Shown here: piece after piece, positions 105 to 38,132 of the stretch
How positions within the stretch are numbered: position 1 is the first letter of the stretch
How the letters are laid out: the number at the start of each line of letters is the position of its first letter
Source: a virus
Reading direction: 5' to 3' (one strand)
DNA: 44,108 nucleotides
Virus genome (UHGV): UHGV-0106768
Made by a program: the position numbers and the translations under genes
Notes under the pieces: generated by a model
Database searches by the model: none
Told to the model about the DNA's origin: nothing
The model's input: the letters and a program-made list of their open reading frames with translations, nothing else

Positions 105-1097
105 ATGACTATATATCTTGAAAGAGGACCGTTTCTCACCATTCCCGATAAGCTGCATCCGGGACAGTACAGAGTGATCCGTAACCCCGACTGGCACGGA
201 GAACTGCCGGAGATCGTGTCCTTCACCGATTTTCTCAAATGGAACTACACACTGGAGTACGGTCAGTATATCCGAAAACTGCACTGCTATCGTCGGCTTC
301 CGCTGCCGTGGGGCGTTCCACAGGATGCCGAGATCGAAACTGTCATCATCGAGGAAGGCAGATATGACCGCATTGATCACGATTCCTTTGATATGTATGT
401 GATATGCGATGTCGTGTTCGAGATGAACGGCTGCCGGCAATGCCAGAAGTATATCGTGCACGGCTTTTACTGCTCTTACGGCGGTTCAGACTTTCTGTGT
501 GATGCGGAGCTGTACGATGGGCAGTTTATCCGGCTGAACAATCCTCTGGATGAGTTTCTGGTTCCCGTTCTCTCAAAGAAAGACTTTGAGAGCATTGCAC
601 AGGATATCCTCAACAGCTACTATTCATATAAGTCGAATTATCCTTGCCGCATCAATACTGCTTCGATTGCAAAGGCTATGGGGCTTGACATCAAGTATGC
701 CCGACTGTCAAAAAACGGAAATGTCAAGTCCAAGCTGATCCTGGACAAGCGGGATACGACCGTCTATGATAAGGAATGCAAAGCTGTCAAAATGCGGATC
801 GACAGTCCTACGATCCTTGTGGACGAGTCATTGGAGGAGGATGAAGCGCAGAACGCCATTATTCATGAGTGCGTTCACGCTTACCTTCACAACCTCTTCT
901 ATGAGCTGCAGAGCTACTATCGGAAAATGGTCGGCAGGAAGATGCCGGAGTTCAATGACTACTTCTATTCCAAGACGCAGCGTAGCTGCCTGAAATGGAT
1001 GGAAACACAGGCAAATGCCATCCCACGCTTTATTCAGATGCCGGAGGAGCAGGCATCCGATGTCATCCTGAACTTCTTCGAGCGACTCCCCGGATAG
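105..1097 (+). CDS. HExxH zinc-metallopeptidase-like protein (ImmA/IrrE-like, tentative)
   Basis: 330-aa ORF with AGGAGG RBS 7 nt upstream of ATG 105; HExxH motif (IIHECVHAYLH) near C-terminus; ends at in-frame TAG 1095-1097 followed by open same-frame sequence. Confidence 0.55.
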   Translation: MTIYLERGPFLTIPDKLHPGQYRVIRNPDWHGELPEIVSFTDFLKWNYTLEYGQYIRKLHCYRRLPLPWGVPQDAEIETVIIEEGRYDRIDHDSFDMYVICDVVFEMNGCRQCQKYIVHGFYCSYGGSDFLCDAELYDGQFIRLNNPLDEFLVPVLSKKDFESIAQDILNSYYSYKSNYPCRINTASIAKAMGLDIKYARLSKNGNVKSKLILDKRDTTVYDKECKAVKMRIDSPTILVDESLEEDEAQNAIIHECVHAYLHNLFYELQSYYRKMVGRKMPEFNDYFYSKTQRSCLKWMETQANAIPRFIQMPEEQASDVILNFFERLPG

Positions 1098-2130: not shown

Positions 2131-2674
2131 GAAACAGTTTAGAAATAGAATATTTATAAAATATCCATTTAATTTAGATGATGTGAACAAGTGCAGATTA
2201 TATATCAAAGTTGAGATAAGCATAGTGCATAAAAAACAGCCCCCATTTTTTATGTATGTAAAAGAGAATTCGGATATGTTATGATATAGACACAGTCAAG
2301 GACAGGCACCGCCGCCCATGACTGGAAACAACCTCTATATGCCGGATGCATACGGCAGAGGACGGTCATATGAGAGCAGAACTGAACACCACAGGTATAT
2401 CCCGTGTTCGGAATCTGACATCATATGGCTACTCTGTGTCATGCATCCGGCTATTTTTCTGCCGCGGCATTCGGAGCATGGCAAATCGATCATTACATTT
2501 GTTAGTCAGGGCGCGCACTGGCGGACAGATGCTCATAACGGAAAACAATGCCTGTGGTCTGTATAGACCGGAACAGGTACCGAAAGATTTTCCGTGTGGA
2601 CATTGTCTGCCTGCGTGCCTTTTCGCAGTAAGAGCATCTGCCGCTGAGTGCGTTCCTTGCAGAAAGGAACGATT

Positions 2675-3397
2675 ATGGAAAACGTGAATGTTCAGAATGC
2701 TGCCGCTATTACCGATCAGACCACACTCGGAGAACTGCTTGCAATGCTTGACCTCGCTGATAAGGCAGGCAAGATGCCGACACCGAGAGAACTGTTTGAG
2801 ACCGCCGGTGAGACGATTGCCGACATGAACGGCTGCACGCTCTTCAGCAACGGGTTCGCTGTCTACCAGAATATCACCGGACGTACTGTTGTCTGGCTGC
2901 CTTACTGTAAGAGCTTCACCTATTACTTCGGCAAGCTCCGTGATTCCGAGAAAGACACGCTGACAGAGACCTATGAGCTGCCGGATGGATTTCTGGAAAC
3001 ACAGCCGTGGGTGATCGCAGTAACACTGATCGGCGACCATCGTGTGGAGGCAAACAGCATGAACCGCACCGGCAGCCGCAAGGATACCACAGATTATGAC
3101 AGCGCCGATAACGGCGATAAAGACGGTGATGCAGAGGAGGCTTTGGCAGATCCGTATCGCAGGGCATTCAACTGGTATGACGGACGCATGGGCGAGAATC
3201 CGCAGGATGCCGTGGAGCGCAGAGAGACACGCGAGGAGATGCTTGCAGACATGACGGACAAGCAGCGTGAAGCCTTTATTATGTACTTCAGGGATGGTAT
3301 GACGCAGGAAGAGATTGCTTCATATATAGGGGTAAGCCGTGATTCCATAAATGACAGGCTTGAAGGTGCATTGAAAAAAGCAAAAAAATATTTTTGA
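2675..3397 (+). CDS. sigma-70 region-4-like HTH protein (putative phage transcription factor)
   Basis: ATG 2675 with AAAGGA RBS (ORF track starts at in-frame GTG 2648); C-terminus (REAFIMYFRDGMTQEEIASYIGVSRDSINDRLEGALKKA) resembles sigma region 4; no region 2 recognised. Confidence 0.5.
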   Translation: MENVNVQNAAAITDQTTLGELLAMLDLADKAGKMPTPRELFETAGETIADMNGCTLFSNGFAVYQNITGRTVVWLPYCKSFTYYFGKLRDSEKDTLTETYELPDGFLETQPWVIAVTLIGDHRVEANSMNRTGSRKDTTDYDSADNGDKDGDAEEALADPYRRAFNWYDGRMGENPQDAVERRETREEMLADMTDKQREAFIMYFRDGMTQEEIASYIGVSRDSINDRLEGALKKAKKYF

Positions 3398-4390: not shown

Positions 4391-5638
4391 ATGCCTGACG
4401 TTCACGCACTGCTCAGTGCGTCCAGTTCAAAACAGTGGCTACACTGTCCGCCGTCAGTCCGTTTGCAGGAGGGATTTCCGAATGAGAGTTCAGTCTACGC
4501 CGCAGAGGGCACGTTTGCCCACGAGATCTGCGAATACAAGGTACGTAAGTACCTGAAGGAGCGTGTGAAGCGTCCGCAGTCCGAGGAATATGACACCGAG
4601 GAAATCGAGCAGATCACAGATGTGTATGCGGAGTTCGTGATCTCCATCATTGAGCAGATGAAGGAGAACGGCTGTGAGCCGCTTGCTTTTGTTGAGGAGC
4701 GTGTGGACTACAGCCACATTGCCCCTTCCGGCTTTGGCACGGCAGATATGCTCATCATCGGTAAGGACGAGCAGGGACGCGGAATCCTTCATGTATGCGA
4801 TTTCAAGACGGGTGCAGGCGTGTTTGTGGATGCAGACCACAACAGCCAGATGATGCTCTATGCGATCGGAGCTTTAGCCGCCTACGGCTTTTTGTATGAT
4901 TTTGAGATCGTGCGTATGAGCATCATTCAGCCTCGTCTGGATAATATCAGCACATTCGAGTGTAGCAGAGCCGAGCTTGAGGAATGGGGCGAGAGCATCA
5001 AGCCCATTGCGAAACTTGCCTACGAGGGCAAAGGTGAACAGCACCCCGGCGACTGGTGTCGGTTCTGCCGTGCAAAGCCTGTTTGCAAAGCGTGTGCCAA
5101 TGAAGCACTGGCACTCTGCCGTGAGGATTTCCTTGACCTCGATGCCGGAGCATTCGATGATACTGCGGAGGAAAGCGATATGACCGCACCATACGAAGCG
5201 GATATACAGACTGCCGTATTCAAGCAGCCGTGACTGATTCCTATCAGCGAACTTGCGGAGATCCTGCCGACTCTGAACCGCATCAGCTCTTGGATCGAGG
5301 CGGTATTCGCATTCGTATCCTCCGAGGCGATCAATCACGGTGTACCGATTCCCGGCTATAAGGTGGTCGAAGGGCGCAGCAAGCGTGTATTCACAGATAC
5401 AAAAGCTGTGGTCGATACCGCTGTTCAGAACGGGTACACCGACCTTTACAAGCAGACGCTCATCACGCTGACGGAATTTGAAAAGATGATGGGCAAGAAA
5501 AAGTTCAACGAGCTGCTCGGTGAGTATGTCGCCAAGCCACCCGGAAAGCTGGCACTTGTGCCGGAGAGCGATCCGAGAGAACCCGTTGATCTCACAACAC
5601 CCGGTCAGGAATTTGAAGTTCTCTCTGATGATGAGTGA
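4391..5638 (+). CDS. DUF2800-like PD-(D/E)XK nuclease (Cas4/RecB-like), interrupted by in-frame TGA at 5231-5233
   Basis: N-terminal MPDVHALLSASSSKQWLHCPPS and C-terminal Cys cluster CRFCRAKPVCKAC are as expected for DUF2800; same-frame continuation through the stop reads as protein (ISELAEILPTLNRISSWIEAV...GYKVVEGRSKRVF); downstream part has no RBS or ATG. Confidence 0.7.
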
Positions 5639-22320: not shown

Positions 22321-23592
22321 ATGAAAACAGCAGAACTTCGCATGATCCCTGTCTCGGAACTGAAGCCTGCGGAATACAACCCGCGTAAAAAGCTGAAGCC
22401 CGGCGACAAGGAATACGAGAAGATCAAAAACAGCATCGAGGAATTCGGTTTTGCCGACCCTTTGGTAGTCAACGCCGATATGACCATCATCGGCGGACAT
22501 CAGAGACTGACCGTAGCGATGGCGCTCGGCTACACGGAAGTTCCGTGTGCGGTGGTAGACATCGACAAGGTTCGTGAGAAGGCACTGAACATCGCACTGA
22601 ACAAGATCACGGGTGCGTGGGACGAGAACCTTCTTGCTGAACTTCTGGAGGATATTCAGAACAGTGATTTCGATCTTGGCAAGACCGGCTTTGACCCGCC
22701 GGAGATCGAGCAGCTTTTCAATCAGGTACACGATAAGCAGGTCAAAGAGGACAGCTTCGATGTGGAGGAGGAGCTTCAGAAACCGACCTTCTCTCAGCCG
22801 GGAGATACCTGGATCCTCGGCAGGCACAGAGTCATCTGCGGCGACAGCACAGTTGCGGAGACATACACAAAGCTGATGGACGGACAGAAAGCAAATCTCG
22901 TCCTGACGGACCCGCCTTACAATGTGGATGTTGAGGAGACCGCCGGCAAGATCATGAACGATAACATGAGCGACAGCGATTTCTACAACTTCCTGCTTGC
23001 CGCCTATAAGTGTATGTATGACAGTCTTGCCGATGACGGCAGCATCTATGTATGGCACGCCGACACCGAGGGGCTGAATTTCAGAAAGGCATTCAAGGAC
23101 GCAGGATTCCAGCTTTCCGGCTGCTGTATCTGGAAGAAGAATTCGCTGGTGCTCGGGCGCAGTCCTTACCAGTGGATCCATGAACCGTGCCTGTTCGGCT
23201 GGAAGCAGAAGGGCAAGCATCAGTGGTACGCCGACCGCAAGCAGACGACCGTCTGGGAATACGACAAGCCGAAAAGCAGTCCCGATCATCCGACCACAAA
23301 GCCCATCCCGCTGATGGCGTACCCGATCAAGAACAGCACCATGACAAACGGCATCGTCCTCGATCCATTTCTCGGCTCTGGCTCTACGCTGATCGCCTGC
23401 TGTGAGACAGACCGTGTCTGCCGGGGCATCGAGCTTGACCCGAAGTTCGTGGATGTCATCGTGAAACGTTACCTCGCATGGTGTCAGGAGAAGCAGACCG
23501 CAGAGGTCGCATATGTTCTCCGTGACGGCCAGAAGCTGTCATACGAGGAAGCGATTGCAGTAATGCCGCAGGACGGTGATGCTGTTGAGTGA
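22321..23592 (+). CDS. ParB-like N-terminal domain fused to N6-adenine/N4-cytosine DNA methyltransferase
   Basis: ParB-N-like GGHQRL; MTase motif IV DPPY before motif I LDPFLGSGST (beta-class order); GGGAGGGA RBS. Confidence 0.8.
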   Translation: MKTAELRMIPVSELKPAEYNPRKKLKPGDKEYEKIKNSIEEFGFADPLVVNADMTIIGGHQRLTVAMALGYTEVPCAVVDIDKVREKALNIALNKITGAWDENLLAELLEDIQNSDFDLGKTGFDPPEIEQLFNQVHDKQVKEDSFDVEEELQKPTFSQPGDTWILGRHRVICGDSTVAETYTKLMDGQKANLVLTDPPYNVDVEETAGKIMNDNMSDSDFYNFLLAAYKCMYDSLADDGSIYVWHADTEGLNFRKAFKDAGFQLSGCCIWKKNSLVLGRSPYQWIHEPCLFGWKQKGKHQWYADRKQTTVWEYDKPKSSPDHPTTKPIPLMAYPIKNSTMTNGIVLDPFLGSGSTLIACCETDRVCRGIELDPKFVDVIVKRYLAWCQEKQTAEVAYVLRDGQKLSYEEAIAVMPQDGDAVE

Positions 23593-24352
23593 AGTAAAAT
23601 GCGTTCTCATACACGACAATTTCCAGAATTACAAGGGCTACAGCATTCCGAGGGCACAGCTCGTCATTGCGGATATCCCGTATAACATTGGCGGAGATTT
23701 TTACGCAAGTCGCCCGGACTGGTATGTGAATGGCGACAATCAGAACGGCGAAAGCAGCAAAGCGCACAAGGCGGCATTCCACACGGACTACTCTTTCAAC
23801 ATCGCTGAGTATTTCGCATTCTGCAACCGACTGCTCAAAAAGGAACCGTCCAAAGGTGAAAAGGATGCTCCCTGCATGATCATGTTCTGCGCCTTCCAGC
23901 AGATCCCGGAGGTCATCCGGCAGGCGGAGAAATAAGGCTTCAAGCACTACCAGTTTTTATGCTTTATGAAGAACTACAGTCCGCAGGTGCTGAAAGCAAA
24001 CATGAGGATCGTTGGTGCTACCGAATATGCGCTGGTGCTGTATCGGGGCAAGCTGCCGAAGTTCCGCAATACCGATGCGGACGGCAAGCGGCACATGATC
24101 TTCGACCATTTCGACTGGGTGCGGGACGGCAAAGATATCCCGAAGATACATCCAAGCCAGAAGCCGGTGAATCTGCTGAAGCGCCTGATTGGGATATTTA
24201 CCGATGAGGGCGATGTGGTCATCGACCCCTGTGCGGGTTCAGGAAGTACACTGAGAGCCGCAAGAGAAATGGGACGCAACAGCTACGGCTTTGAGGTCAG
24301 CAGGGATTTCTATACCAAAGCCCGTGAGCAGATGCTCGGAGGTGCGGAATGA
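23579..24352 (+). CDS. N6/N4 DNA methyltransferase interrupted by in-frame TAA at 23933-23935
   Basis: Motif IV DIPY upstream of the stop; HPSQKP and motif I IDPCAGSGST downstream; same frame, continuous protein-like read-through (AEK * GFKHYQFLCFMKN). Confidence 0.65.
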
Positions 24353-24594
24353 CGAAACAGGAATGTGCCATCGTGACAGCGTACACAGGGTTCGCTATGC
24401 TGAAGGGCAGCGACCTGAAATATCTGTACAATTATCTCTCCGGTCTCATCGGCAGGCCGGTGTATTCACACGAGATCCCTGCGGTCGCAGAAGCCTGCAA
24501 GGAACAAATACGAGAAGATTTCCTTGCCCTGTGCAGGAACGCAAAGGAGGCGGATGATGGATCATACAACAATGACGCTCGGCAGTCTGTTTGA
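24349..24594 (+). CDS. hypothetical small protein
   Basis: 81-aa ORF overlapping both MTase genes. Confidence 0.4.
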   Translation: MTKQECAIVTAYTGFAMLKGSDLKYLYNYLSGLIGRPVYSHEIPAVAEACKEQIREDFLALCRNAKEADDGSYNNDARQSV

Positions 24595-26848
24595 CGGCTC
24601 CGGGGGCTTTCCGCTTGGTGGCATCCTCGCAGGGATCGAGCCAAGGTGGAGCAGCGAAATTGAACCTTTTCCGGTGCTTGTCACGCACAAGCGGCTGCCG
24701 CAGGTGCAGCACTACGGTGATGTATCTACGCTGAACGGCGCAGAGCTTCCGCCGGTGGATATCATCACCTTAGGCAGTCCTTGTCAGGACCTGTCTATTG
24801 CGGGCAAGCGTGCCGGAATCCATGACGGTGATCGGTCGAACCTGTTCTTTCAGGCGATCCGCATCATCAAAGAAATGAGGGATGCAACAAATGGACGATA
24901 TCCGCGATACTGCGTCTGGGAAAATGTCCCCGGCGCTTTCTCATCCAACGGAGGAAACGACTTCAAGGCTGTCCTCGAAGCAGTTATCGGAGTTAAAGAA
25001 AAAGGGATCGAGGTGCCTGCGCCTGAAAATCACAGATGGGCAAAATCAGACGTATATCTGGGAGACGGATGGAGCGTGGCTTACCGAGTTTTCGATGCTC
25101 AATACTGGGGTGTCCCCCAACGCAGAGCAAGAATCTACCTTGTCGCAGATTTTGCTGGCGAAAGTGCCGGAGAAATACTATTTAAGTCCGAAGGCGTGTC
25201 TTGGTATACTCCGCAGGGCTTCCGTGCGTGGCAAGGAGCTGCCGGAGGTGCTGAAGAAGGCACTGGAGAAACAGGCGGGCGGTCTGACGCTGGAGGTGGA
25301 ACCCTCTGCCTGAATACACAGGGCAACAGCGGCGTCGGCATCACCGAGGACAAGGCTCTCGCACTGGTCGCACAGGATCACGGGAATCATCCTGCCGTTC
25401 TTGCCGCAGGTTTTTCCACAGAGCATAGTGCAAAAGCACGCAGCATCGGATACGAGGAGGAAGTCTCCCCGACACTGAGAGCAGGTGTTGTTCCTGCGGC
25501 ACTCTCGGTCGAAAACCATCCGACAGACGGTCGTGTGAAGATCCGTGAGGACGACACCTGCCAGACACTTTGCAGCAGAGCCGGGACGGGCGGCAACAAT
25601 GTACCGCTTGTCGCTGAACCGATCACGCTGAAAATCAGGTCAGGCTGCGAAGGCGGCGGCAAGGGCGCTCTCTGGCAAACTGATAAATCTGCTACGCTTG
25701 CTACCAACAACAACCAGACACTCTTTCAGCCAGAGATCAAAGCCTTCGGTGTATGTAGCAAGCATTCCAATGCGATGATGTCAGACAATCCGCACAGTGG
25801 CTTTTACGAAGCGACCACGAGCAGAACGCTTGACCAGAGCGGTGGAAACTCCGTAACATCGAATCAGGGCGGCATCTGCGTGGTAGCACCTGCGCCGGAG
25901 ACATTCGATGTGCGTTTCACATCGGACGGCACGAAAAATGCTCGTGGGCATTGTTACCCGACAGACATTTCCCGATGCCTTGATACGAGCGAGGGATCGC
26001 CAGACTCGAATCACGGCGGTGTCGCTGTGGTGGCTCTTGAACCGGGGGCTGCATCACGTGTCGGCGGTCATGTGTACAGTGACGGCAAAAGCGGTACGCT
26101 TCGAGCCAATGCCGGCGATAATCAGCAGGCTGTTGTGGTCGCCGAGCCGGAGACCTATGCTCTGCAAGGCTCGATGATCGGTCGTGCCGACAAGAACGGT
26201 CCGCAGGGTGACGGCATCAATGAGGATGTGTGCTTTACGCTCAATACTTCAGACAGGCACGCTATTGCCGCACCCGATCCGTCTTTCACGATTTCCCGTG
26301 ACAATCACTTCGCCGTTTCGGAAGATATATCTGTTACGGCAGTTGCGAGAGGTCCTGCAACGGTCGCAGCCCCGGCAGATCACTACTGCACAAGCAAGAA
26401 TTCACACCACACGGTCGCTGTGCATGAGCAGGCAAACACGCTGGTCGCATCCGACTGGAAGGATCCGCCGCTTGTGAACGACCTTCCGAATGACGAGCCG
26501 GTATATATCGTAAGAAGGCTGACTCCGGTGGAGTGCGCCAGATTGCAGGGATTCCCGGACTGGTGGTGTGCCGACCTTGCGATTCCTGATCCTTCTGACG
26601 AGGAGATCGCCTTCTGGATGGAAGTATGGGAAACTTGGAGACAGATCACAAATCCCAAGGGCAAACCGAAAACGGAAAAGCAGATCCGCAAATGGCTGGC
26701 TAATCCGTACACGGACAGTGCCGAGTACAAGTTATGGGGCAACGGTGTCTCAGAGCCCGTTGTGTTCTTCGTGCTATCCGGCATTGCCTGGGCGGCACAG
26801 AATTCTGAAACTAATGCAGCAAATTGTGAACATTCTGATACTATGTAA
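24557..26848 (+). CDS. DNA (cytosine-5) methyltransferase, unusually long, probably multispecific
   Basis: Motif I LFDGSGG, motif IV GSPCQDLS, motif VI ENVPG, C-terminal motif IX/X RRLTPVECARLQGFPDWW; ~450-aa variable region between catalytic and C-terminal motifs. Confidence 0.85.
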   Translation: MDHTTMTLGSLFDGSGGFPLGGILAGIEPRWSSEIEPFPVLVTHKRLPQVQHYGDVSTLNGAELPPVDIITLGSPCQDLSIAGKRAGIHDGDRSNLFFQAIRIIKEMRDATNGRYPRYCVWENVPGAFSSNGGNDFKAVLEAVIGVKEKGIEVPAPENHRWAKSDVYLGDGWSVAYRVFDAQYWGVPQRRARIYLVADFAGESAGEILFKSEGVSWYTPQGFRAWQGAAGGAEEGTGETGGRSDAGGGTLCLNTQGNSGVGITEDKALALVAQDHGNHPAVLAAGFSTEHSAKARSIGYEEEVSPTLRAGVVPAALSVENHPTDGRVKIREDDTCQTLCSRAGTGGNNVPLVAEPITLKIRSGCEGGGKGALWQTDKSATLATNNNQTLFQPEIKAFGVCSKHSNAMMSDNPHSGFYEATTSRTLDQSGGNSVTSNQGGICVVAPAPETFDVRFTSDGTKNARGHCYPTDISRCLDTSEGSPDSNHGGVAVVALEPGAASRVGGHVYSDGKSGTLRANAGDNQQAVVVAEPETYALQGSMIGRADKNGPQGDGINEDVCFTLNTSDRHAIAAPDPSFTISRDNHFAVSEDISVTAVARGPATVAAPADHYCTSKNSHHTVAVHEQANTLVASDWKDPPLVNDLPNDEPVYIVRRLTPVECARLQGFPDWWCADLAIPDPSDEEIAFWMEVWETWRQITNPKGKPKTEKQIRKWLANPYTDSAEYKLWGNGVSEPVVFFVLSGIAWAAQNSETNAANCEHSDTM

Positions 26849-34992: not shown

Positions 34993-35466
34993 ATGGCTCA
35001 GAGAGGCAGAAAACCAACGCCTACGGCGATCAAAGAGCTGGAAGGCAATCCGGGCAAGCGTCCGCTGAATGATGCAGAGCCGAAGCCGGAACGCAAGGCA
35101 CCGCCCTGTCCGAAGTGGCTGGAGCCCGAAGCAAAAAAGGAATGGCGCAGGCTGTCAAAGCAACTGGAGCAGATTGGTGTGCTGACCGAGGTCGATCAGG
35201 CGGCATTCGCATCCTACTGTCAGGCATACGCACGATGGAAAGAAGCCGAGGAATTCATGACCCAGCACGGCACGATCGTAAAAACAAAATCAGGTTACTG
35301 GCAGCAGGTTCCGCAGGTATCCATTGCGCAAACTTATCTGAAGATCATGAACAAGATCGCAGAGCAGTTTGGCCTGACCCCGGCGGCAAGAAGCCGTATC
35401 ACTGCCGGCGCAGATATGAAAAACGCTGCCGTTGACGATATGGATGAACTTCTCGGAGGTGGCTGA
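34993..35466 (+). CDS. terminase small subunit (P27 family)
   Basis: GRKPTPTAIKELEGNPGKRPLN...AFASYCQAYARWKEAEEF...FGLTPAARSRI pattern; GGAAGGAG RBS; in-frame ATG also at 34987. Confidence 0.75.
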   Translation: MAQRGRKPTPTAIKELEGNPGKRPLNDAEPKPERKAPPCPKWLEPEAKKEWRRLSKQLEQIGVLTEVDQAAFASYCQAYARWKEAEEFMTQHGTIVKTKSGYWQQVPQVSIAQTYLKIMNKIAEQFGLTPAARSRITAGADMKNAAVDDMDELLGGG

Positions 35467-38132
35467 TGGCGAGAACGGCAAAGGCAAGAGAAAGACCTGC
35501 CAACTATCCGAAACTGAAGGATTATAAACCGACACGCTTTATGCTGCCGGAATCGCACTACGATGCGGCAAAGGCTGACCGAGCTGTGCGGTTCATCGAG
35601 AATCTCTGCCATACCAAAGGACGCTGGGCAGGCAAACCGTTCTGGCTGCTTCCGTGGCAGGAACAGATCATCCGGGATATTTTCGGCATCGTCAAAGAGG
35701 ACGATATGCGGCAATTTCGTACCGCCTATGTCGAAATTCCAAAGAAAAATGGGAAGCAGCTTGCACTGGATACACCGATCCCGACTCCGCAGGGATTCAC
35801 CAATATGGGAGATCTGAAGGTCGGAGATACAGTATTCGATGAAAACGGCATTCCGTGCCATGTGGTTGCGAAAAGTCCTGTGGATGATACAGAGCAAGCC
35901 TACAAGCTGACCTTCAAGGACGGCACCTCGATCATTGCCGGGGAAAGGCATCTGTGGAACTGTCAGTATATTTACGGCAAACGCAAGGATGTTCTCTGGA
36001 CGACCGGCGAGATCTATCGCAGGACAACGGAATACAGACAGCGTTTTTCCGACAGACCACAGACAAAGCGGGATTCCCTTATCCGAATTCCGGTGTGCGG
36101 TGTCCTTCAGACAGAAGCGGCAGTTTTACCGATTGATCCGTATCTGTACGGCTACTGGCTCGGAAACGGTAATGTGACCATGCCGGAGATCACTGTTCGG
36201 ACGGAGGATGTCGAGGATATCATCTCGAATATTCCGTATAAGGTACACAACCGTTATCCGCAGAAATGCGGCGGCAGTGAGATCATAAAGTACAATGAAC
36301 TGAAAGCAGTACTACTTGACAGCTTCCGTGAAAAGAAGATCCGACCAGAATATCTGAGGGCATCCGCAGAGCAGAGATGGGCATTACTGCAAGGGCTTAT
36401 GGATTCGGACGGCTGTATCGGTGAACGCAAAGGGCAAAGTGTGTATGTCACAACGCTGCGAGAGCTGGCGCTTTCCGTCAGAGAACTGCTGTGGTCACTC
36501 GGCATCAAAAATGCAGTGAAATGTGAGCCTTCTACACGGCATGGGTGGCCGACCGGCGAGATTTTGTATATCGTCCGTTTTACAACCTTTGATGACCAAC
36601 CGACATCAAGGCTTAAACGCAAAAATACACGCACACAGGCGCGGTTAAAGGAAACTCGCTCCTGTTTTCATTATCTGCTGGATATTCAACCTGTAAATCA
36701 TCCTGTAAAAATGCAGTGCATTCAGGTGGACAGTCCGAGTCACCAATATCTCGCAGGACCGTCATTTGTGCCTACGCACAACAGTGAGCTTGCAGCGGCA
36801 ATTGCACTGTATCTGCTCTACGCCGACAACGAGCCGTCTGCTGAGGTCTACGGCGCTGCTGCTGATCGTGGGCAGGCATCCATTGTATTCGATGTCGCCA
36901 AAAGAATGGTTGAGATGACACCGGCACTTCTGAAACGCTCAAAAATCATGGCGGCGACAAAGCGTCTGGTGAATTACAGTAATGTTGGCTTTTATCAGGT
37001 GCTTTCAGCGGAAGTCGGTACAAAGCACGGATTGAATGTATCCGGTCTGGTTTTGGATGAACTTCATGCCCAACCGAACCGCAGCCTTGTGGATGTTCTC
37101 ACAAAGGGTTCCGGTGATGCCCGTACTCAGCCGCTGTACTTCCTGATCACAACCGCCGGAACGGATCGCAACAGCATCTGCTACGAGTATCACACGAAAG
37201 CAAAAGATATTCTGGACGGCAGGCGCATTGATCCGTCCTTCTATCCTGTGATCTACGGCTTGAACGATGATGACGACTGGAACGCAGAGGAGTCATGGTA
37301 TAAGGCAAATCCCTCGCTCGGATACACTATCGCCATCGACCGAGTCCGCGATGCTCACCGGGAAGCCCTTACAAATCCCGCTGAAGAAAATGTATTCCGT
37401 CAGCTGAGGCTTGACCAGTGGGTAGGCAGTGCGGTGGCATGGATTCCGGAGCATATCTACGACAGGGGCAATCTTCCGATCGACCTCGAAAAGCTCCGGG
37501 GACGGGAGTGCTACGCAGGTCTTGACCTATCCAGCACATCGGATATCACGGCATTTGTGCTGGTGTTCCCTCCGCTGCATGACGGCGAGAAATACATCGT
37601 TGTCCCGCACTTCTGGCTGCCGAGAGAAACGCTCGATTTACGAGTACGGCGAGACCATGTTCCCTACGATGTATGGGAGCGCATGGGATTATTTCATATC
37701 ACCGAGGGCAATGTGGTCGATTACAATTTCGTGCGGAAAACGATCAACGAGCTGCACACGATGTACAACATCAAGGAAATTGCTGCCGACCGCTGGAATG
37801 CCACACAGCTTATCACAGACCTTGAGGGAGACGGATTTACCGTTGTTCCGATGGGCATGGGCTTCAAGGATATGTCCCCGCCGATGAAGGAACTGTACAA
37901 GCTCATACTCGAAGGGCAGTTTATCCACGGCGGCAACCCTGTACTCCGCTGGATGGCAGGAAATGTGGTCGCTGAAATTGATGCAGCGGAGAACATCAAA
38001 CCAAGTAAAAAGAAAAGTACAGAAAAGATTGACGGTATCGTGGCATGGATCATGGCACTTGACCGCTGCATCCGCCACGAAATGCAGGGCAGTGTCTATG
38101 ACGAACCCGGCCACGATCTTGTGGTCATCTGA
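35466..38132 (+). CDS. terminase large subunit, intein-containing
   Basis: Walker A KKNGK split from SELAAAIALYLLYAD by an insertion; downstream Walker B-like LVLDELHAQ, ITTAGTD, nuclease-domain motifs. Confidence 0.85.
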   Translation: MARTAKARERPANYPKLKDYKPTRFMLPESHYDAAKADRAVRFIENLCHTKGRWAGKPFWLLPWQEQIIRDIFGIVKEDDMRQFRTAYVEIPKKNGKQLALDTPIPTPQGFTNMGDLKVGDTVFDENGIPCHVVAKSPVDDTEQAYKLTFKDGTSIIAGERHLWNCQYIYGKRKDVLWTTGEIYRRTTEYRQRFSDRPQTKRDSLIRIPVCGVLQTEAAVLPIDPYLYGYWLGNGNVTMPEITVRTEDVEDIISNIPYKVHNRYPQKCGGSEIIKYNELKAVLLDSFREKKIRPEYLRASAEQRWALLQGLMDSDGCIGERKGQSVYVTTLRELALSVRELLWSLGIKNAVKCEPSTRHGWPTGEILYIVRFTTFDDQPTSRLKRKNTRTQARLKETRSCFHYLLDIQPVNHPVKMQCIQVDSPSHQYLAGPSFVPTHNSELAAAIALYLLYADNEPSAEVYGAAADRGQASIVFDVAKRMVEMTPALLKRSKIMAATKRLVNYSNVGFYQVLSAEVGTKHGLNVSGLVLDELHAQPNRSLVDVLTKGSGDARTQPLYFLITTAGTDRNSICYEYHTKAKDILDGRRIDPSFYPVIYGLNDDDDWNAEESWYKANPSLGYTIAIDRVRDAHREALTNPAEENVFRQLRLDQWVGSAVAWIPEHIYDRGNLPIDLEKLRGRECYAGLDLSSTSDITAFVLVFPPLHDGEKYIVVPHFWLPRETLDLRVRRDHVPYDVWERMGLFHITEGNVVDYNFVRKTINELHTMYNIKEIAADRWNATQLITDLEGDGFTVVPMGMGFKDMSPPMKELYKLILEGQFIHGGNPVLRWMAGNVVAEIDAAENIKPSKKKSTEKIDGIVAWIMALDRCIRHEMQGSVYDEPGHDLVVI
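35757..36782 (+). mobile_element. class-3-like intein (342 aa) with LAGLIDADG homing-endonuclease domain inside terL
   Basis: Starts QLALDTPIPTPQGF (Gln, not Cys/Ser/Thr); block B HLW; block F Cys (MQCIQVD); ends FVPTHN followed by Ser; LAGLIDADG-like LYGYWLGNGN and LLQGLMDSDG; excision restores EIPKKNGK-SELAAAIALY. Confidence 0.7.

Follow-up and report, generated by a model that had tools for sequence, protein, structure and literature searches.

The gene analyzed here belongs with the beta-class DNA methyltransferases of family PF01555. It has the same motif order and fold as M1.HpyAVI (PDB 5hfj/5hek), the closest solved enzyme, and then as M.BceJIV, CcrM, M.RsrI, M.MboIIA, and M.PvuII. Three bodies of work bear on a stop codon inside such a gene. 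In-frame stop codons are common and mostly short-lived in prokaryotes, with TGA singled out as the leaky codon (PMC7918605). In recoded gut phages, TAG is read as Gln and TGA as Trp (PMC11210395, PMC10879173). Prophage decay and domestication are treated by Bobay, Touchon, and Rocha (2014), in the form in which that work is cited in PMC7918605, and "grounded prophages" have also been described (PMC6379469). How does a TAA codon inside a small phage methyltransferase gene compare with these systems? We analyzed a stretch of 44,108 nucleotides (here called the window), which makes up positions 1 to 44108 of the ENA contig ERZ1303852 NODE_435, a SPAdes contig of 45,599 bp with 7.4x coverage according to its name. 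Our results suggest that the gene was very probably broken by an ordinary, recent nonsense mutation rather than being subject to unusual decoding. The phenomenon is already known: ordinary nonsense mutations are expected in the accessory genes of temperate phages.

Read directly from the window, the TAA lies at positions 23933 to 23935 on the plus strand in the context GCG GAG AAA TAA GGC TTC AAG. It is the sole internal stop of a 257-codon frame (23579..24352, plus strand), and translation of 23576 to 24352 through the stop gives "...VIRQAEK*GFKHYQFLCFMKN..." with one internal stop. The codon closes the ORF 23576/23579..23935, whose frame is the same as that of the ORF 23966..24352. In the read-through frame, DIPY (motif IV) lies 5' of the TAA, and HPSQKP and IDPCAGSGST (motif I) lie 3' of it. 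The match to the PF01555 N6_N4_Mtase profile is unbroken across the stop: residues 27 to 248 of the 257-aa product, with X at the stop, cover profile positions 2 to 219 of 221 (E = 3.7e-27). Because a single PF01555 stretch crosses the TAA, the two ORFs are not chance neighbors. The frame, the flanking motifs, and this single match confirm what an earlier note on this DNA had proposed, namely, that an in-frame TAA sits inside the second N6/N4 DNA methyltransferase gene.

On the 5' side of the stop (23579..23935, plus strand), the ORF encodes an N-terminal fragment of 118 aa, which by motif reading carries motif IV (DIPY) and lacks the AdoMet-binding motif I. The start of this ORF overlaps the 3' end of the upstream gene by 14 nt. 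The remainder of the methyltransferase gene (23936..24352, plus strand), as judged from the ORF, its motifs, and a reading of its start sites, holds a motif VIII-like strand, a target-recognition region, HPSQKP, and motif I (DPCAGSGST). From an in-frame ATG 10 codons 3' of the TAA (ATG 23966), gene callers predict a product of 128 aa with motif I. A run of five T (CAGTTTTTATGC) is found at 23953 to 23957, shortly 3' of the TAA.

DIPY occupies residues 32 to 35 and corresponds to the catalytic motif IV, (D/S)PP(Y/F); its D, P, and Y do not vary among 30 homologues. Motif I occupies residues 216 to 224, C-terminal to motif IV, which is the beta permutation. We used an AlphaFold model of an intact orthologue with 90% identity (P0001; pLDDT 80.8, pTM 0.82). 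Foldseek matched this model to M1.HpyAVI and the other enzymes named above with E values of 1e-14 to 1e-9, and the sequence match to the M1.HpyAVI structure 5hfj (E = 3e-15) runs through the stop position. Unlike in these enzymes, the frame in the window is broken at codon 119, where the TAA parts motif IV from motif I in what is no longer an uninterrupted coding sequence, and the product is a 118-aa fragment. Judged from its sequence, the gene is a beta-class N6/N4 DNA methyltransferase gene by descent and reads as a pseudogene as encoded. In the P0001 model, the Tyr at the stop site sits between a helix (residues 104 to 115) and a core beta-strand (residues 121 to 129), and a restart at Met131 would omit that whole strand. 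Methyltransferase activity is thus most likely lost, given a predicted fragment with the DPPY-type motif and lacking the AdoMet-binding motif I.

Which codon did the stop replace? A homologue search of a large protein collection gave thousands of matches. The best 120, which we examined, are uninterrupted, with lengths of about 230 to 311 aa, identities of 68 to 90%, and query coverage of 88 to 99% (96 to 99% in all but two). The alignment column at the stop holds Tyr in most of 30 homologues and otherwise His or Gln. We then took the DNA of relatives from IMG/VR and GTDB genomes and read the codon directly. Each of the 48 scorable relatives has a sense codon at the site, which specifies Tyr in 42 loci (TAC in 38 and TAT in 4) and His (CAC/CAT) in 6. 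All of the close relatives (∼35, with 91 to 99% amino acid identity) have TAC. Among the fetched loci, TAA was found only in L001 and L002, both of which match the window at 100% identity. We also scanned JGI metagenomes with a 48-nt context carrying N at the variable base; this retrieved ten contigs, and C (TAC) was present in 10/10. The comparison with orthologues that the earlier note had called for therefore yields a sense codon at the TAA site in the 48 scorable relatives and in the 10 context-matched contigs.

The gene itself is intact in these relatives. A tblastn comparison showed the full-length methyltransferase gene to be intact at 139 fetched loci, and no in-frame stop was seen among the relatives fetched without regard to length; most of the other loci end at a contig edge, and four gave partial matches. 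Since the relatives have a sense codon one base away, the event is a change of TAC to TAA, a C>A transversion at position 23935 that turns a Tyr codon into the nonsense codon 23933..23935. Across the loci compared, this change is specific to the window strain. Searches for its immediate TAC ancestor gave only relatives at 88 to 93% identity in the 48-nt context scan of JGI metagenomes, and a 66-nt strain-specific pattern had no match in IMG/VR.

Comparison with the nearest relatives also bears on the age of the lesion. The window methyltransferase gene is 90 to 92% identical to theirs in DNA and 97 to 98% identical in protein (60 to 74 nt and 6 to 8 aa differences), and the differences are spread evenly over the two halves of the gene. 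Of the codon changes unique to the window, 11 are synonymous, 1 is missense (V102M), and 1 is nonsense; 3' of the TAA, there are 6 synonymous changes and 0 missense changes. Purifying selection thus acted over essentially the whole of the window branch, which indicates that the stop is recent. The TAA would accordingly be a loss-of-function allele of young age rather than a long-standing pseudogene, its recency being deduced from these counts. The lack of missense changes 3' of the TAA fits a recent lesion and, equally, a gene that is still in use.

The TAA is one of three such stops in the window. A TGA at 5231..5233 (plus strand) interrupts a gene for a DUF2800/PD-(D/E)XK nuclease (4391 to 5638), and the two halves around it match PF10926 at positions 1 to 249 and 256 to 368. 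The codon at this site is Gly (GGN) in 32 of 35 scored relatives, the other three, which are more distant, having Ala or Asn; the nearest relative of the nuclease (L202, 99% amino acid identity) has GGA and an intact gene, so the change reads as GGA to TGA (G>T). The TGA allele is found on the same contig set as the TAA. A TAG at 1095..1097 (plus strand) interrupts a phrog_4031 gene (105 to 2033), with parts matching profile positions 120 to 311 and 328 to 622. In this gene, the metallopeptidase-like match of the N part is weak, and an HTH is found in the C part. Four IMG/VR relatives have GAG (Glu) at the site within an uninterrupted 642-codon frame, giving GAG to TAG (G>T). The earlier note had placed both of these stops, like the TAA, inside otherwise continuous genes, with each of the three stop codons occurring in this way once; the split DUF2800 nuclease, the split phrog_4031 frame, and the methyltransferase all agree with it. 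Its statement that the long ORFs are intact also held, in that all large structural and replication ORFs in the window are intact.

The TAG allele has a different history from the TAA. It occurs on 15 contigs from many human-gut cohorts and in two haplotypes (loci L149 to L158), which are set apart by 17 nucleotide and 5 amino acid differences 3' of the TAG. The TAG lesion is certainly real, and it is older and widely spread, unlike the TAA. The two-piece form of the phrog_4031 gene may be tolerated or even functional. The two haplotypes adjoin two different repressor genes, of 290 aa and 310 aa.

The three nonsense changes (1095, 5231, and 23935) are all G:C>T:A transversions. This class makes up 38% of the possible nonsense paths in the genome, and three of three has a p of about 0.014 to 0.054. 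Among the window-specific substitutions in the three genes, G:C>T:A accounts for 7/23 versus 50/405 (p = 0.02). Over the 6.3-kb methyltransferase region, the excess was not significant (9/32 versus 79/483, p = 0.076), and several relatives were similar. We rejected a mutator or oxidative-damage signature behind the three stops as not robust, the excess falling short of significance over 6.3 kb.

Is the TAA allele real? The truncated 118-aa product is called exactly on five contigs from ENA, JGI, and Logan assemblies, including an 84,952-bp JGI contig (3300029559), and in two of the five the retrieved 6.3-kb region shows 100% identity with the window. Further copies of the phage strain include a MEGAHIT contig named for ERR1190833 (PRJEB12124, human gut metagenome) and Logan contigs of ERR1190833. 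The TAA is present in every assembly of the window strain, as seen in contig sequences, and its agreement between several assemblers excludes an assembly slip. One run, ERR1190833, gave rise to two or more of the TAA contigs, and one sample with about 7x coverage may be the sole source of the allele. An error in sequencing or consensus, with TAC as the true codon and oxidative damage during library preparation as the source of G>T/C>A errors, would fit the shared mutation class of the three stops, the SPAdes coverage of just 7.4x, and the origin of at least two contigs in the same run. We consider such an error very improbable: the identical sequence was obtained in four or five assemblies by different software, damage errors are of low frequency and should not win the consensus three times, and the companion TAG allele, found in many unrelated cohorts, is beyond doubt.

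Could the stop instead be decoded as an amino acid? Reassignment of stop codons, as in an alternative genetic code, draws on a real resemblance, in that the window, like the well-documented recoded gut phages (PMC11210395, PMC10879173), has in-frame stops within conserved genes of a gut phage. It differs from them in several ways. Each of the three stop codons occurs in frame within genes only once, and the three differ; the residues aligned with them are Tyr, Gly, and Glu, with no single amino acid in common. The same codons terminate genes: the 44 genes of the window end with TGA (30), TAA (13), or TAG (1), so that TGA and TAA close 43/44. No tRNA gene was found by ARAGORN in the 44-kb window and about 31 kb of its flanks (loci L254, L149, L147, and L002). 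On these grounds (tRNA genes not found, normal use of TAA and TGA terminators, and mixed aligned residues), an alternative code or suppressor tRNA was rejected. We give reassignment almost no chance, and the earlier judgment that a genome-wide change of code is unlikely stands, given the 43/44 terminators and the relatives with sense codons one base away. A leaky stop would be a milder departure: near-cognate decoding (e.g., by tRNA-Tyr or tRNA-Gln) would yield a little full-length enzyme, making the stop an attenuator of expression and not a knockout. Both halves of the gene do look selected, with 11 synonymous changes versus 1 missense change on the window branch, and in a second lineage (L264/L265) a gene that is otherwise intact is interrupted by an in-frame TAG six codons further on. 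The window stop resembles those of Belinky et al. 2021 (PMC7918605), who argue that in-frame stops with low dN/dS are widespread in prokaryotes and may be read through briefly in evolution, in that it lies under a signature of purifying selection; it differs in being a TAA that is not conserved beyond one clonal strain, and the conclusion of the same study is that such stops are mostly deleterious and short-lived. Recency explains the low dN/dS equally well, and the stop is missing from every other relative examined. Its TAAG context is also the commonest context of normal TAA terminators in the window (5/13). UAA is the least leaky bacterial stop, since both release factors read it, and this likewise counts against read-through. 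With the stop unconserved, its context that of an ordinary terminator, and a suppressor tRNA not found in the sequence searched, the site-specific read-through that the earlier note had kept as an alternative is not supported; we regard it as very unlikely.

A related possibility is that the gene has become a split enzyme, in which translation restarts at ATG 23966 (30 nt downstream of the TAA) or ATG 24002 and the two fragments assemble into an active methyltransferase. The predicted 128-aa product with motif I and the in-frame ATG 10 codons past the TAA would suit such a restart, and other lesions fall just 5' of Met131, namely, the TAG at codon 125 in L264/L265 and a putative −1 frameshift in P0126. 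Several observations argue against it. A site of the GGAG/GAGG/AGGA/AAGG type is present at 23/44 of the predicted starts in the window; ATG 23966 lacks a Shine-Dalgarno sequence in the adjacent 20 nt, and ATG 24002 has just AGGTG 12 nt upstream. No promoter-like site was found between the two methyltransferase halves. The restart product would lack residues 119 to 130 and with them the core strand 121 to 129 of the model. The split is not conserved, the relatives being unsplit, and the clustering of lesions is an ascertainment effect of one length-restricted 90% cluster, in which the other 128-aa "halves" are contig-edge artifacts. Independently expressed halves, with a start belonging to the second, were therefore rejected: ATG 23966 has no start signal, the stretch between the halves holds neither a ribosome-binding nor a promoter-like site, and the core strand is lost. 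A functional split enzyme is, in our estimate, highly improbable. Two bolder proposals would give the lesions a purpose. The lesions just 5' of Met131 (TAA at codon 119, TAG at codon 125 in L264/L265, and the P0126 frameshift) could convert a constitutive phage methyltransferase into a two-piece or strongly attenuated enzyme, made by termination-reinitiation or by read-through at a low level; such a form might be favored where full methylation carries a cost (e.g., in hosts with methylation-dependent restriction). Alternatively, the three G:C>T:A stops could represent a selected "grounding" of the prophage, in which an antirepressor-like gene, a recombination nuclease, and the methyltransferase are lost and the structural genes are kept. 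We hold either to be a long shot. Loss of the methyltransferase, if adaptive, would bear on phage-host restriction dynamics, and we saw no sign of adaptiveness here.

The lesions of other relatives were drawn from the length-restricted 90% protein cluster (L261 to L265 and P0126), and it is this length-restricted look-up that makes their nearness to the TAA an ascertainment effect. In L264/L265 (ENA ERZ23499565 and ERZ27277094; positions 2501 to 3280), TTT TTG has become ATT TAG, which puts a TAG in frame at codon 125, six codons past the site where the window has its TAA, in a gene that is otherwise intact. The two loci come from two samples, differ at 3/5375 nt, and represent an independent lineage. 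An HNH endonuclease gene lies upstream of the ParB-methyltransferase gene in L264/L265 and is missing from the window. In L261 to L263 (three GAIO21-1 samples), a genuine truncation at residue 150 cuts the methyltransferase short and non-phage genes follow directly, which is a prophage-remnant boundary inside the methyltransferase gene. These non-phage genes encode an HTH protein, a TetR-like protein, and a large fn3/GH85-like protein. The P0126 peptide (...HYQFCAL*) is the expected product of a 1-nt deletion in the T5 run at 23953 to 23957; it would correspond to a −1 frameshift whose terminating TGA overlaps Met131 (ATGA), as deduced from the protein. We rejected recurrent splitting of the methyltransferase: the 128-aa "C-halves" (P0130, P0136, and P0137) start where their contigs are cut, the L260 scaffold contains Ns and a gap of 220 bp, and relatives fetched without a length criterion gave zero in-frame stops, the TAG of L264/L265 being genuine and independent.

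Nonsense mutation of an accessory gene thus remains the reading that we favor, and it agrees with the isolated nonsense lesions preferred in the earlier note, with single-base sense codons at all three sites (TAC, GGA, and GAG). The window has a cluster of three methyltransferase genes (a ParB-N6/N4 fusion, the small beta-class N6/N4 enzyme, and a C5 enzyme), which plausibly shields phage DNA from host restriction. The C>A transversion turns the conserved Tyr119 codon TAC into TAA; translation would end there, and the remaining 417 nt would probably not be usefully translated. Three single-base nonsense lesions in one genome fit with a phage that is copied mainly as a prophage. One potential explanation is that copying in this mode relaxes the constant selection on lytic-cycle and anti-restriction genes, which may have allowed the three lesions. 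The window in this respect resembles prophage nonsense pseudogenes: the changes are single-base, sense to stop, and lineage restricted, there are several per element, a repressor module is present, and there are truncated remnant relatives. It differs from decaying prophages in that no frameshifts or deletions were seen in it and its large structural and replication ORFs are intact. The element may be at most at the very start of decay and still viable.

These results affect how the region should be annotated. The ORFs 23579 to 23935 and 23966 to 24352 represent one disrupted methyltransferase gene and not two small proteins, and the window should not be marked as a recoded phage. They also indicate that a gut phage lineage can hold several fresh nonsense alleles, one of which (TAG 1095) is widespread across human cohorts.

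We read the window as a temperate phage or prophage of the siphovirus type, whose human-gut Clostridia host probably belongs to the Oscillospiraceae/Ruminococcus. Relatives were found in Oscillospiraceae and Ruminococcus MAGs, and the deposited phages that come nearest are those of Lachnospiraceae, Agathobacter, and Dorea, with about 73% identity confined to the ParB-methyltransferase. The window carries genes for replication and nucleotide metabolism (DNA polymerase A, the DUF2800 nuclease, a single-stranded DNA-binding protein, and NrdD/NrdG) and for packaging and structure (TerS/TerL, portal, ClpP-type protease, HK97-type capsid, and tail genes). To the left of the window in the 85-kb JGI contig (3300029559, Ga0244915_100163; L257, 1 to 9569) are genes for a CI-like S24 repressor, which adjoins the left end of the window, a thymidine kinase (TK), SRAP, and an HTH protein, together with a complete type I restriction-modification system (hsdM, hsdS, and hsdR). 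The right flank (L254, 11900 to 20642) holds Dit, a 1359-aa tape-measure ORF, and ORFs on the minus strand that carry dockerins; an IS110-family transposase lies within or beyond the tail module. The parts of this 85-kb contig that were read revealed neither an integrase nor an attachment site nor a clear host core gene, and the "prophage" assignment is deduced from the repressor module and the larger JGI contig.

Immediately upstream of the disrupted gene lies an intact gene in which a ParB-N domain is fused to an N6/N4 methyltransferase (22321..23592, plus strand; PF02195 and PF01555), called as a 423-aa gene in L001. An exact look-up of its longest-ORF version gave no match, as gene callers start it later. 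Downstream, a DUF7736 gene (24349..24594, plus strand) has its start overlapping the methyltransferase stop (ATGA) and has its own ribosome-binding site, GGAGGTG. The third methyltransferase gene of the cluster follows (24557..26848, plus strand); it is intact and encodes a C5-cytosine DNA methyltransferase of about 763 aa, with three stretches matching PF00145 (E = 4e-37) and a gene call in L001. This C5 methyltransferase is unusually long, and its PF00145 stretches surround a large Gly/Ser/Thr-rich middle region; it may be multispecific or insertion bearing. The large terminase (35466 to 38132, 888 aa) has a weak Pfam match to LAGLIDADG_3, which suggests an intein or homing-endonuclease insertion in TerL.
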